The translations under genes and the position numbers were made by a program. A stretch of 64,000 bases of DNA, taken from assembly GCA_964016885.1 (NCBI GenBank), contig OZ024744.1, positions 2,480,001 through 2,544,000 on the forward strand. The letters run 5' to 3'. A model generated the notes under the pieces. That model was not told the DNA's origin. It saw only the letters and a program-made list of their open reading frames with translations, and did not search any database. The DNA comes from Eledone cirrhosa (taxonomy: Eukaryota). Below, one piece after another: positions 131 to 63,800 of this stretch (the stretch's first letter is position 1; every line of letters starts with the position of its first letter).

Positions 131-404
131 ATGGTGTTTTTATTAAATATGGACTTGAAGACAAAATTTAGGAAATATGAAAGCGAGGCTGAAAAAAAAC
201 GGGCGAAACGGAATTTTGTAGAGGAGTAGGTACATTTTGTTGGAAGGAATAGGTATATTTTTGATAGAATAATCCAATTCTTAAACGTCCATGGTGTATG
301 TTGGTTAATTTCCTGAAACTGTAGAGTGCTCAACTTATCGGGCTGGAAGGTGCCAATCGTATATGCAATATAGAATGTGCTTCGATCATTCCCGGTTGGA
401 GCTG

Positions 405-537
405 TATAAATGAAGTATTTCCGTCGGAAAGGTACAGGAAATAAGATTGCTCTATGTAGGCTACAGTAATAAGCTCTGTAGCCTATATAGAGCACTCTTT
501 CTTCCTGTACCTTTCCGACGGAAATACTTCATTTATA
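405..537. repeat. Fold-back inverted repeat (short PLE pLTR inversion) abutting (TA)n
   Basis: Arms 405-466 and 476-537 are reverse complements with few mismatches. Confidence 0.85.
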
Positions 538-1105
538 TATATATATATATATATATATATGTGTGTGTGTGTGTGTGTATATATAAATATTCACACACGC
601 TCATTCACACACACAGACACATATATGTATATATATATATATATACATATATATATATATATATATATATATATATATACACACACATATATATATATAT
701 ATATACATATATATATACATATATATATATGTATATATATATATATATATATATACATATACATATATATACATATATATATATACATATATATACATAC
801 ATATATATATACATGCATATATATATATATATATACATATATATGTATATATATATATACATATATATGTATACACATATATGTATGTATAAATACGTAC
901 ACATACACACACACACGTATATACACATACATACATATATTATATATATATACGTACATATATTAATATGTTTGTGTGTGTGTGTGTATATATATATATA
1001 TATATATATATATATATTTATATATAAACGCACACACACGTATTTGTGTGTGTGTATATATATATATACACACTCTCATGTACATTTATATATATATGTG
1101 TGTGC
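534..1105. repeat. Compound (TA)n/(CA)n/(TG)n microsatellite, representative of dozens in the window
   Basis: Direct reading; source of the [14 protein letters not shown] pseudo-ORFs. Confidence 0.98.
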
Positions 1106-1133
1106 ATGGGTCCTTCTTTCTGGTGTTTCTTAT

Positions 1134-1441
1134 AGTGTTGTTAGCTGACTTTTGGCTGCTATTTCTAAAGTGTCTATTAATATATGCTAGAAATAGCAGT
1201 CAAATGTCAGTTAACAAGACCAAATAAGAAGGATTATATAAACTGCACACCCGCAAAATGTTTAACTTAATTTCCGGCTTTAAGTAAGACAAGAGTTATC
1301 TTTCTTGCCAAATATTCTCCGTTTGTTGACATAAAAAAAATCTATTGTTTAAAAAGTTGAGGCTGAATTTTAGCTAACTTTTTTCATCTTGTCCACTTCC
1401 GGTTTCAATTTTCGCGCTAGAAATAGCAACCAAGAGCAACA
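1134..1441. mobile_element. Non-autonomous interspersed repeat with tgctatttcta/tagaaatagca inverted motifs (probable MITE)
   Basis: Related copies at about 29950-30445 (+) and 34850-35120 (-). Confidence 0.5.
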
Positions 1442-1616
1442 TATATAGATATATATAATCCTAATCGTAAAGTGCTTTACTATATAAATATATATATATG
1501 AATGTGTGTATCAGTGTGTATGCATGAGAGCGTGTATGTGTGTATATATATATATATATATATAAATATATATATGTATTTTTATATATATATATATATA
1601 TATATGTATTTATATA

Positions 1617-59480: not shown

Positions 59481-59668
59481 AGGGCGGTGGATTGGTAGTA
59501 TCGGTAGAGGGTCGGACGCCATGCTTTCCAGCATAGTTACGTCCCTTTACGATCTGAGTTCAAATCCCGCCGAGGTTGAGTTTGCCTCTCATCCTTACGG
59601 GGTCGATAAAATAAAGTACCAGTAATGCACTGGGTAATTGCTGGCCTTGTGCCTAAAGTAGAAACAAT
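59481..59668 (+). mobile_element. Nin-domain SINE (family 2) nested in the PLE 3' UTR
   Basis: Near-identical to 30127-30314. Confidence 0.88.
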
Positions 59669-60640
59669 TATATATGTTTACTTAATGGTATCAGTTTTAG
59701 GAAATGATAGTTGTAAGAAGGAAAGCAAAATTATGTAGTTCATCAGTAGTAGAATATTAATTATAGGTTAACTAAATTAAAAATAGTTTATATATTAATT
59801 TCTAAAGTGTATATTAATTAGGTTTATAATATTTAAAGGTTTTTCTCAGTTTATGATTACACGATATTATTAATTCCTGTCGCTTATTTAATAGGATATC
59901 CTTAGATTTCATTATTTCAAAACGTTCTTGGGAACATAATCTACATTCATATCTACTATTTTGATAAGGGGTGGCCCTTTTGAGCACACTCCAGGTCAGG
60001 TCATAATCTATATTCCTCTTTCTATAACTATTAATTATTTCAGCTAGAGATGTTGTATTAGCTAGTGCGGCATTTTTAAAACTATGTTTGTGGGTATTAA
60101 ATCTTACCTTAAATTTGTTAGAGGTAGCTCCTATATATGAATAAATTGAGTCCGTAGTGTTAACTTTACATTTATATACTATATTATTAACAAGGCAATT
60201 TCCTTTTAATGGACAGTTTGCCTTATTTCTACAGTTACAACTTTTCGTGAATCCTGTATCTGAGGAGATATTATGGTTAGTTTGATGTACTGGTGGTATA
60301 CTCATGGTTTTTTTTACATTTATATGCATTATAGGCACTTATATTTTGTTTTATGTTTTTGGTTGTTGAGTAGGAGAATTTAACCGTTGATCTATTTAAG
60401 ATTTGATGGTATTTGTGGTTTGGCAGGAAGTTTTTCTCTAGGATATTAAAGAATTTTTTAGGTATAATATTCTTTTCCATCCAAAACTGAAATCTACCTT
60501 CCTCTACCCATAATTTAAGGTTCTTCTACTACTATATTACTATCTTGACCCTCACTATCTCTCTATTGGTAAATTCAAAACCTGTTCCCAAACAGACCTA
60601 TTGTATTGAATCTTTTTTTTTTCAATAAACAAATATCATT

Positions 60641-60772
60641 ATTTCTGAAGACAGCATATATATGTGTAGGTATGTATATTCCCTCTGATAGTTTGTATAA
60701 ATATTGTACATAGATCTATAGAATATGCATACCAACTCTAACACATATATATCCTAGAAACGATCGTAAAAT
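60641..60772 (+). ncRNA. Hammerhead with ~105-nt stem II (mirror 58460-58591 -)
   Basis: attt CTGAAGA cagcatatatatgt...acatatatatccta GAAA cgatcg TA aaat. Confidence 0.7.
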
Positions 60773-60845
60773 GATGAATTTTTTTAATATAAGGAACTGT
60801 TTCTTTGTTTATTCATTATTTTATTAATTTATATATATATATATA

Positions 60846-63800
60846 TATTTATTAAAATAACAGATTAAAGTTTAAGCAAAGAATCGCTGCTTTCACCCTT
60901 AACGGGATCTTCTGAAACTAACAAAGTCAATCTGTAGACGCAGAACTGGATATTTCAAAAAACGTTGCAACCGGAGGAAGACAGGAAGACGATACGGTTC
61001 TTATATATTTGATATTTATTTATCCTTATCGAGCCCTCTTTGGATTTTAGTCTTCAAATTTATTATTATTACTATTTGGCTCCCTCGGTTGAGCACTCTA
61101 CTGACTTATATTCATCATGCAGAAACAACATCTGAATATTTCTACAAAGAACATACCCGTACCAAGCAGGAAAACATACCTAAAACTCCTGATACAGAAA
61201 ACAGACGCGTTCATTAAAAGGTTGCGTTGTCGTGACTTTTATTTCGATAATCCGCGAAAAGCAGACAACAAACAGGATAAATTTGGATTTAAAACCTATA
61301 ATAACCCGCCGTGGAATCCAGCATTGCTACCCTTCGAAAATGATGACTTGGAACTCATTCGGAGTATCAAATTTCGGAATAGCAGCAATTCCTTCCAGCA
61401 AGACCTGGAGAATAGAATTCGTTCTATTAAGGATTCTAATGCCGTGCACGTCCATTCCGACAAAACTGGCTAACTATATCAAGTGGAGCGCAGTACTTAT
61501 CATCAACTACTACATAATGCTGTAACTAAGGATTACCGTAAAACTAATCGTTGCTTTCATCAATGAAATCAACGATGCTGGGTTTAAAATCACATCTGAT
61601 CTCAACATCCTGGACCGGACCGAACCTCTGGACCCTATTTCTCCCCACTTTACCCTGAAGGATCACAAATCCAATTTTCCGAAAAACCCCTCTATTCGGC
61701 TTATTAACCCTACGAAGTCCGATTTAGGTAGACTTAGTAAAACGATTCTTGATAGAATTATACCTGAAATTAGAAGTTTGGCCCCTCTTGCACTGTGGAA
61801 CAATTTTTTCGCGGGGATTAATTGGTTCAACGGCATATGTAACAAGGAACATTGCCGTTTTATCCAATTCGACATCAACAATTACTACTCCTCCATCACT
61901 TTACCACTTATCCTTAGAGCTATCAATTTCGCTAAAACACTCACAGTGGTTAAGGATTTCGAAGTTGATGTCATCCTCAATGCCCGAAAGTCGGTGATTA
62001 ATTTCGACGACTCTATTTGGATTAAAAAATCCAATAGTACCCCATTCGACGTGAGTATGGGCGCCAGTGATTCTGCGGAGGTTACTGATCTTATTGGCCT
62101 TTTCCTTCTTTTCTCTATCAAGGACGAATTCCCCAACACGGGCGGTGGCTTGTACCGTGATGATGGTCTTTTGACCATGACTAAGTGCGGACCTCGTGCT
62201 TGCGACAGGTTCAGAAAAGAACTCACAGCCTTCTTTAAAGGCTTCAACCTCTCTATACAGGTTGAGGCCAATCTCTCGGTCGTTAATTACCTCGACGTTA
62301 CCCTCAATTTATTGAATGGGTTGTATTACCCGTATAGAAAGCCGAATGATACGCTTAATTACATAAGTAAGCATTCCAACCATCCTGCCAGCATAACCAA
62401 GAACCTGGTACGAAACGTTTCGTTGAGGCTTTCCCGTCTTTCCACCAACGAGCGTATTTTCAACGACCATTCCACTTATTACAATGAGGCTCTTGCTCGA
62501 AGTGGATTTGTCGATAAGGTAGCATATACAGAGTACGAAAATAAATAGACCTAGAAGTAATATACCCCGTCGCATTTTTTGGTATAACCCACCATATAAT
62601 ATGGAGGTGGCCACACCATTAGCTAAGATCTTTCTTTCCCTTATTACGAAGCATTTTCCCCCTACACATAAATATAGTAAAATTTTTAATAGAAATACTA
62701 TTAAAATTTCTTACTCTACGACTCCTAACCTTGCACATAACATCACAGCTTCAAATTTAGCTAAACTACCTAGCCGTAGGAACACGTGCAACCCTGTAGT
62801 TAGTACTAACTGTAATTGTAGGAATCGGGCTGATTGCCCCCTATCCGGGAAATGCCTCTCTAGCAACATTGTCTACAAATGTAAGGTTGTAACACCCACG
62901 TCCCGTAGGGCCTACATAGGGTTAACCGCCAATAGTTTCAAGCAGCGTCTTTACATGCACACCCATTCTTTTCGTTACCCTCTAAGAAGGAATATGACGT
63001 CACTTTCAGCTTATATCTGGAGTCTAAAAGACAACCACACCCAATATAAGTTACACTGGGATATCCTAGCTAGGGCTAGATCGTATAACGGAAATAAAAG
63101 ACCATGTGACCTCTGCACCGCTGAGGCCCTGGAAATACTCTACGCCACAGACCACATCTTAAATAAAAAATCTGAGGCAATTTCGGCTTGTAAACATAAA
63201 TTGCACAAAACTTTCCTGTATTACAGCCCCACGTTATACCCTGACGGATAGGACGATCTATACGTGGATATTTTACGTCTTGATGTGGGAGCTAAGTATA
63301 TGTTTTGTTTATACCTTTACTTATTTGCATAGGTAAGTATATTTTACCCGTATGTTTTGTGAAGGTACGTATACCTTCTCGTACGTATATTTGATTGTTA
63401 TGGCGTATAATTTTATATATTCTGGTACATATGGTTTGGCTATGTGTATACGGGAGTTTTGCGTCTGTGTGAGTATGCAGGTTCGTAAGTTTGGTGGGTG
63501 TGTACTTCATGTTTTGGTTGACTTACGTCTCCGAACATTCGTGTATTTATATGTAGGTATGTGTGTGCGCTTGTTATATACGTATTTATTTATTTATATA
63601 CGTTTATATAATTATTTATTTATTTGTATACTCGCAAACACACACACACACATATTTATATGTGCGGGGTTTTGTATACCTATGGTAAGTTTTTGCGTAT
63701 GCTTGTGTATGTACGTATTTGTTTGCGTGTATGTATTTATTTATTTCTATTACTTCTGTATTGTATTTATTTACTTTGTTCTTAACTCTGAGGCGGAGAT

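Follow-up and report, generated by a model that had tools for sequence, protein, structure and literature searches.

Paired bulged helices as candidate RNA signals for the two ends of Hydra-clade Penelope-like element insertions

Penelope-like elements (PLEs) optionally carry a tail on one of their inverted pseudo-long terminal repeats (pLTRs) (PMC3846280; PMC8557442), and the origin of this one-sided tail, like that of PLE tandem and inverted structures, has been described as undefined (PMC8557442). The closest described system is the Poseidon PLE PAc from an anole (Frangieh et al. 2024, PMC11167929). In vitro, its reverse transcriptase (RT) starts at two internal positions matching the ends of the tail, which lies between them. 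RNA 3' of the starts is required, both DNA strands are cleaved and extended, and a dimer is predicted (PMC11167929). We analyzed the PLEs in 64,000 nucleotides (nt) of the Eledone cirrhosa genome (assembly GCA_964016885.1, contig OZ024744.1, positions 2,480,001 to 2,544,000), which we call the window. We found that Hydra-clade families of these PLEs carry a covarying bulged helix at each of two sites where insertions end. The two starts and the tail with its occurrence on one side only were already known; judged from the literature and Rfam searches described below, the helix appears to be new.

By its translated sequence, the intact element of the window is a Hydra-clade PLE with one open reading frame (ORF) for an RT with a C-terminal GIY-YIG endonuclease (EN). 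The Hydra clade is defined by DKT, CxCX5C, CxxC, and CxH marks and a (TA)n target (PMC8557442). Read against that description, the 819-amino-acid translation has the DKT, CxCX5C linker, CxxC, and CxH motifs, and (TA)n is the insertion target of the window's PLE families, as in the Hydra clade. A Pfam scan of the ORF gave no significant match. We call this 832-codon family F832; F832, F713, F714, and F253 are our own labels. F832 has well over 100 near-identical intact copies genome-wide, and its protein has 290 full-length homologs.

A bulged helix in the pLTRs of independent families

A sequence-only reading of the window had listed 17 stretches in which RCUC pairs with GAGY next to a 2-nt bulge, and had proposed a selected helix shared by otherwise unalignable pLTRs. 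All 17 stretches match their description. With microsatellites removed (55,248 nt left), its descriptor plus one inner pair gave 25 sites, against 5.7 ± 2.1 (maximum, 11) in 60 local dinucleotide shuffles; about 6 of the 25 may be chance. The sites additional to the original list are at 1781, 4917, 8818, 11603, 28929, and 52886.

Across the 3.0-Gb genome, we found 148,766 matches with an A-U outer pair (1,941 for the reversed-pattern control) and 24,367 with a G-C outer pair (control, 688). A G·U outer pair gave 13,605 (control, 746), many of those listed being an inner GCTC nested inside an A-U hairpin, and an A·C mismatch gave 2,943 (control, 1,189). These matches are mutually dependent copies, and we therefore turned to families picked regardless of the motif. 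Protein alignment found 78 metagenome loci, of which 63 match the N terminus (15 were dropped); these form 40 clusters at <75% nucleotide identity, 38 of them with at least 120 nt upstream. The strict motif was present within 200 nt upstream of the ORF in 33 of the 38 clusters, and in two copies in 18. It was found in 6 clusters on the antisense strand, in none within coding sequence, and in a mean of 0.56 (maximum, 3) over 200 shuffles. The strand asymmetry expected of the proposed helix was present (33 sense versus 6 antisense).

For covariation, we chose instances on the CTC and GAG cores and the downstream context only, which gave 59 instances from 35 of the 40 clusters. Inner pair 1 was Watson-Crick in 53/59 (C-G in 38, U-A in 14; 31.4 when permuted), inner pair 2 in 34/57 (17.8), and inner pair 3 in 26/48 (11.3), each with p = 0.0002. 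Inner pairs 4 and 5 were not significant by permutation, and slid controls gave 5 and 6 of 57. The first bulge base was U in 58/59. The second was U in 43, C in 9, A in 6, and G in 1, and so the bulge is UN and not the UY first described. Directly 3' of the helix is a conserved ACU-N-U that the sequence-only reading had missed. The full motif is RCUCY…R-UN-GAGY-ACU, with the bulge on the 3' strand and a variable loop of 4 to 70 nt. The covarying helix common to unalignable pLTRs was thus upheld in independent families. Its outer pair, said to covary in all 15 full window cases, broadly does; this is slightly overstated, as the site at 30919 probably uses another partner, and a relative of that site (locus L240) has GAGC. 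We considered that the downstream ACUCU might pair with the other helix and dropped the idea, since its fourth base is C in only 33/59; a splice-site reading of the T-rich upstream stretch was also dropped.

The motif also occurs in published consensi (PMC8557442, File S7), read by eye. Coral Hydra-2_Amil and sea-cucumber Hydra-2_Ajap have it close to the 3' end, Hydra-1_Ajap has two copies at the 5' end, and Hydra-1_Amil and Hydra-1_Crog have a variant form. It is absent from the Hydra-1_Obim consensus, which stops soon after the hammerhead. Six 9-mers of the helix 3' half were found at 7 places in the 584,000-character supplement of that paper, in which line breaks may hide some; 4 of these places are Hydra termini, and the other 3 are within the bodies of Naiad or Chlamys elements. 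Searches of Rfam 15 gave one match among 14 metagenome loci (E = 0.79, far short of the cutoff); in the window, none of the 150 matches listed out of 293 reached the gathering score, and most were noise from microsatellites or palindromes. We found no description of the helix in the literature within reach of our search, which did not extend to subscription papers, Repbase notes, or the anole supplement. Separately, contig C1 has a tandem array at 14235091-14252855 with at least 19 copies of a pLTR-derived helix whose outer pair is broken.

The helix is present twice per element, in the order hammerhead, helix A, spacer, helix B, ATG. This pairing of helices and their position at both element ends were not part of the sequence-only reading. 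Helix A lies 48 to 78 nt after the hammerhead GAAA, and helix B lies about 15 to 40 nt before the ATG. The A-B spacer is 36 to 59 nt in 23 two-helix metagenome clusters (one of them an overlapping artifact) and 132 nt in F832. RNAalifold, run unaided on 20 hand-picked A helices, found the same seven pairs, three with double changes. The helix had been said usually to lie tens of nt 3' of a hammerhead; our descriptor found an upstream hammerhead for only 4 of the 17 window sites, and a canonical hammerhead core lies 5' of helix A in 20/20 metagenome families with enough sequence. In the high-copy families F832 and F713, the second base of the hammerhead core is changed and the stems are intact. 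Of the 17 listed window sites, 12 precede a (TA)n end (11 at 34 to 62 nt and one at 124 nt), 3 (328, 11769, and 61079) are just before an ORF, and 2 (5706 and 19371), which may be chance occurrences, have no assignment. We rejected 2291 and 43895 as ORF-adjacent helices, as both end in (TA)n.

Insertion ends and the pairing of arms

We then mapped where insertions end, counting TA microhomology in the offsets. In two families, 56 of 60 unselected copies stop 2 to 10 nt before helix A or B, at a TA. Among 30 hammerhead-anchored F832 loci, 16 end at A (3 to 4 nt before the helix), 11 end at B (5 nt before), and 3 read into the ORF; among 30 F713 loci, 17 end at A, 12 at B, and 1 elsewhere. In one 30-locus set, 10 loci belong to another subfamily and are not end-mappable without gaps. 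The same two end clusters were found in three further families; for F714b, whose reference contained a TA tract, only the clusters at 247-248 and 324 were used. In the metagenome families, 9 of 14 listed ends fall at the two sites. The distance from end to helix is constant though the A-B spacer varies from 36 to 132 nt. We concluded that the stretch between the A and B sites is the known PLE tail. Helix B is missing from the arms whose end it marks and must therefore act from the template side.

It is only remotely likely that the helices have a role in translation, packaging, or control of the hammerhead, the nearby ends simply following local TA richness. The closeness of helix B to the ATG and of helix A to the hammerhead would suit such roles. 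The positions of the 56 ends, however, vary by only a few bases at either helix, with many other TA steps around them.

At some loci, (ATT)n or (ATTT)n that matches the template next to it comes after the end (L351 and L356, both F713 B-ends, and L082 from the metagenome), possibly further RT reiteration. At window positions 9874-9879 and at many other loci, one (TA)n tract is shared by ends of different PLE families, and insertions pile up in the flanks.

Inverted insertions follow a rule. The first 100 F832 anchors on contig C1 include 24 inverted clusters, and the exact helix A is on exactly one outer arm in 21, on neither in 3, and on both in 0 (table 0/11/10/3; Fisher p = 1.5e-4). We examined all 20 two-arm clusters, leaving out 4 multi-arm ones, and found that every one (20/20) has one A-end and one B-end. 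The window's own F832 insertion does the same. Of 14 F713 inverted pairs picked by eye from the anchor list, 11 are A+B and none is B+B. Separate RNAs or complexes could have made the two arms, and both arms do cover the same sequence. Independent choice, however, predicts A+A and B+B in about half of the pairs, and we observed 31/34 A+B with no B+B.

Inner junctions have overlaps of 1 to 9 nt in 14/20 F832 insertions. The A-arm reaches >500 nt further 5' than the B-arm in 6/20, the B-arm reaches further in 8, and the two break within 26 nt of each other in 6. Since the A-arm is longer in those 6, neither arm was copied from the other, and a single fold-back of one cDNA, which cannot yield an A-arm longer than the B-arm, was dropped. 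Separate RNAs or a fold-back would leave the helices as starts that work outside a single twin-primed complex. One A+A pair (F713, L390) and 2 of the 20 junctions, in which both arms break at the same position, speak for such a scheme, which we consider very improbable. Junctions that break within 26 nt would fit two enzymes stopping together on one template.

The window also has near-perfect long palindromes at 2524-2632, 8415-8496, 19459-19598, 27287-27383, and 52886-52911, which gave weak microRNA-model matches. They probably mark the inner junctions at which the two arms of short head-to-head PLE insertions meet.

Some F832 A-ends are reiterated: 10 of 36 distinct A-ends have 1 to 4 extra copies of the 7 to 9 nt preceding the helix. 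No reiteration was found in 26 arms that pass the A-site internally (p = 0.0035 versus A-ends), and it occurred at 1 of 35 B-ends. The unit is flanked by repeated TATA, an alignment-template-alignment layout like that of telomerase and DRT10 (PMC12632851).

These ends bear on two further explanations. In one, the GIY-YIG EN reads the hairpins as DNA and cuts an intermediate at the TA before each, the ends being cut sites. The tail has been ascribed to EN-mediated resolution (Craig et al., PMC8557442), recognition by the Drosophila virilis EN needed the tail (as cited in PMC11167929), the ends fall on TA, and the G·U and A·C outer-pair counts given below are compatible with DNA. Reiterations found at ends and not at internal passes fit priming slippage instead, and the anole protein begins reverse transcription at the tail ends on RNA (PMC11167929). 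Cutting of DNA is the best of the alternatives that we considered and still improbable.

In the other, RT copies an antisense transcript, and the helices act as stop signals comparable to the telomerase template boundary, where it halts and stutters. A self-primed antisense template has been proposed for head-to-head repeats (PMC3846280), and a boundary helix with repeat addition is used by telomerase and DRT10 (PMC12632851). Both outer ends would then be stops, and neither would be target-primed; the motif shares its strand with the hammerhead and ORF; and the in vitro template is sense RNA (PMC11167929). An antisense template is thus highly unlikely.

Proposed mechanism and comparison with known systems

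Our preferred reading, at a probability of about 0.7, is that the helices are RNA docking signals that set two internal RT starts, and that both target strands are primed from a single RNA. One ribonucleoprotein that is probably dimeric would bind A and B on a single read-through RNA and nick both strands of a (TA)n target. Each nicked 3' end would pair with the UA just 5' of one helix and prime cDNA, and the RT, still tethered to the helix, could slip back and recopy the first 7 to 9 nt as telomerase does. The two cDNAs, both extending upstream, would then be joined by a few bases of microhomology. The two arms of the resulting insertion would stand head to head, and exactly one of them would carry the tail (helix A and the spacer). 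The dimer state would follow the prediction published for PAc (PMC11167929), and the folding strand would be RNA and not DNA.

We give only a slight preference to the fuller version, programmed twin priming. In it, a dimeric telomerase-like RT-endonuclease reads two helices of the arginine-sandwich type on one transcript, primes both target strands simultaneously, and may add telomerase-like repeats during tethering. The U bulge may form a U·A-U triple together with a pocket of the arginine-sandwich kind known from TAR and 7SK, and this part of the proposal is a lead only. Candidate RNA contacts in the PLE protein are the conserved Arg residues 36, 38, 539, and 541.

Several observations weigh against docking and twin priming. 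Both arms copy the same part of the RNA, and a single template needs strand displacement, which is assumed. Three F713 pairs depart from the A+B rule: the A+A pair, one A plus read-through, and one near-A plus B, whose near-A arm ends 15 nt before A. The strict motif was missing from 5 of the 38 metagenome clusters, with only 18 having two within 200 nt, and the inner-pair permutation test ignores kinship among families. The strand test on outer pairs did not separate RNA from DNA (G·U 5 versus A·C 3). The RWK motif reads RVSWR in F832, so that an Arg found at that column in 94% of 117 aligned proteins is Ser in an active protein. Finally, one CCHH-type PLE family of the window lacks this helix and still ends at two (TA)n sites, spaced by about 36 nt (16 long and 12 short in 30 loci, L319-L348). 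Two ends thus do not require the motif, which is one clade's solution. The CCHH-type copy is at 6143-8330 (+), with 784-codon ORFs elsewhere and a small, different hairpin in its tail.

The docking reading shares with PAc two start or end sites that bound an optional tail, RNA needed 3' of them, and extension of both strands, and with other PLEs a tail on one arm of inverted repeats (PMC11167929; PMC3846280; PMC8557442). In PAc, the starts are in an "AC-rich stem loop," and the available part of the description names no conserved RNA signal (PMC11167929). The Hydra families, in contrast, have a duplicated covarying helix at each site, a counted A+B rule, and a tail of about 60 to 165 nt composed of helix A and the spacer.

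The arginine sandwich of HIV TAR and 7SK SL1 is similar in having a purine, a U-first bulge, G-C, A-U, and a further G (PMC6189040; PMC2699496); the TAR counterparts are A22-U40, U23, G26-C39, A27-U38, and G28, and a 2-nt bulge is found in HIV-2. In our instances, the bulge pyrimidine is U in 58/59 and the preceding pair is Watson-Crick in 53/59. In 20/20 aligned helices, G-C pairs stand on both sides of an A-U pair that is one step away from the bulge, though this core was used for selection and is not independent. The topology differs: it is permuted, the variable loop closes the other stem, and ACU-N-U follows, and we claim no common descent. TAR itself, found at the 5' end of the transcript, has its bulge in the 5' strand beneath an apical hexaloop, whereas the PLE bulge is on the 3' strand.

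Telomerase RNA and the DRT10 noncoding RNA likewise have a short template next to a helix, with an alignment segment that is repeated and of which reiterated copies are made (PMC12632851). The telomerase boundary element, however, lies 5' of the template and stops RT (PMC12632851), whereas the PLE helix lies 3' of the copied region. PLE reiteration is also only occasional (10/36 A-ends), and the RT then copies kilobases.

The RTs of long interspersed elements (LINEs) and R2 recognize 3' stem-loops, and L1 twin priming yields inversions by way of two primed cDNAs. In these elements, the RT copies the signal, which lies 5' of the start, and the position of the second priming site varies. The likeness to the PLEs would be that a cis-acting RNA structure recruits RT and two primed cDNAs give an inversion; in PLEs, in contrast, twin signals lying 3' of the two starts would fix both, and the two arms overlap.

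The window, its features, and what the helix would mean

The features are listed in Table 1.

Table 1. Helices, end sites, and related features of the window (end, distance in nt to the (TA)n end)
Feature	Position	Strand	Remarks
Helix A of F832, 3' pLTR	15802..15835	+	Core pair probability 0.97-1.0; 1,407 exact copies in the genome
Helix A of F832, copy in upstream partial pLTR (11538-11763)	11603..11636	+	
Helix B of F832	11769..11785	+	20 nt 5' of first ATG; not carried into 3' ends
A-site end of F832	15791..15798	+	3-4 nt before helix A, TA microhomology counted; reiterated at some ends
B-site end of F832	15955..15962	+	Equals 11763, 5 nt before helix B; then (TA)n
F832 tail (helix A + spacer)	15799..15962	+	Between both end sites
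Inverted arm of F832 insertion	9879..11547	-	Copy of 14130-15798, 99.8% identity; ends at A-site
Intact Hydra-clade PLE ORF (RT + C-terminal GIY-YIG)	11806..14265	+	819 amino acids counted from first ATG
Hammerhead-like motif of F832, predicted	15709..15756	+	Variant core CCGAAGA at 15713-15719
Hammerhead-like motif of F713, predicted	9714..9764	+	Variant core CAGAAGA at 9719-9725
Helix A of F713	9791..9836	+	(TA)n end 38 nt on, the B-site
Helix A of F713, second copy	4917..4961	+	(TA)n end 38 nt on
Helix B of F713	61079..61094	+	22 nt before ATG
Inverted arm of F713 insertion	60845..60995	-	Ends at A-site beside (TA)n
Helix B, long loop, 714-codon family	328..402	-	
A-type helix, A-U form	2291..2310	+	End +62
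A-type helix, A-U form	2491..2514	-	End +48; 13/16 relatives also +48
A-type helix, same family as 2491	28929..28952	+	End +48
A-type helix, A-U form	9049..9088	+	61 nt after hammerhead; end +53
A-type helix, A-U form	21579..21614	+	End +34
A-type helix, first inner pair reversed	27168..27193	-	End +36; no relative among examined loci
A-type helix	30919..30966	-	Partner probably inner GCTC (G·U pair); end +44
A-type helix, first inner pair G·U	43895..43924	-	End +57; no relative among examined loci
A-type helix	56914..56982	-	60 nt after canonical hammerhead core; end about +40
A-type helix, long loop	58315..58395	-	End +46
A-type helix, one mismatch	18791..18844	+	End +58

The F713 anchor has 22,430 exact genome copies. 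The 400 kb flanking the window are PLE-poor (8 motif pairings, 4 with a TA end), and no relative was found in the viral contigs searched. A search for RNA data covering 11540-12300 listed none, a result that is uninformative about expression. The monomer model of the 819-amino-acid protein is confident (predicted local distance difference test score, 87), and its closest folds are telomerase RTs. Two Asn-rich, low-confidence inserts (residues 486-533 and 629-673) lie within this otherwise well-folded model. Downstream of the 5706 site, at 5300-6000 (-), there are two diverged direct repeats with a long-stem hammerhead. By translation, LINE-type RT/endonuclease fragments are at 17038-18651 (+), 21863-25004 (-), and 20456-20950 (+). 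C2H2 zinc-finger arrays are at 37064-37700 and 45513-47200, the second interrupted by stops or frameshifts, and tandem repeats with units of about 72, about 100, and 90 to 175 bp are at 47495-48067, 48260-49337, and 50965-52017.

If programmed twin priming is correct, no RNA recognition signal of a PLE would have been defined before this helix, and the tail and the inverted pLTRs across the whole PLE order would be accounted for. The motif gives a 30-nt handle on these structures and exact boundaries for >170,000 matches in a 3-Gb genome. With >100 near-identical intact copies, the active F832 family lends itself to in vitro work. Since PLE RTs and telomerase RTs are sister groups, an RNA anchor beside a short reiterated template would bear on the origin of telomerase-style repeat addition.

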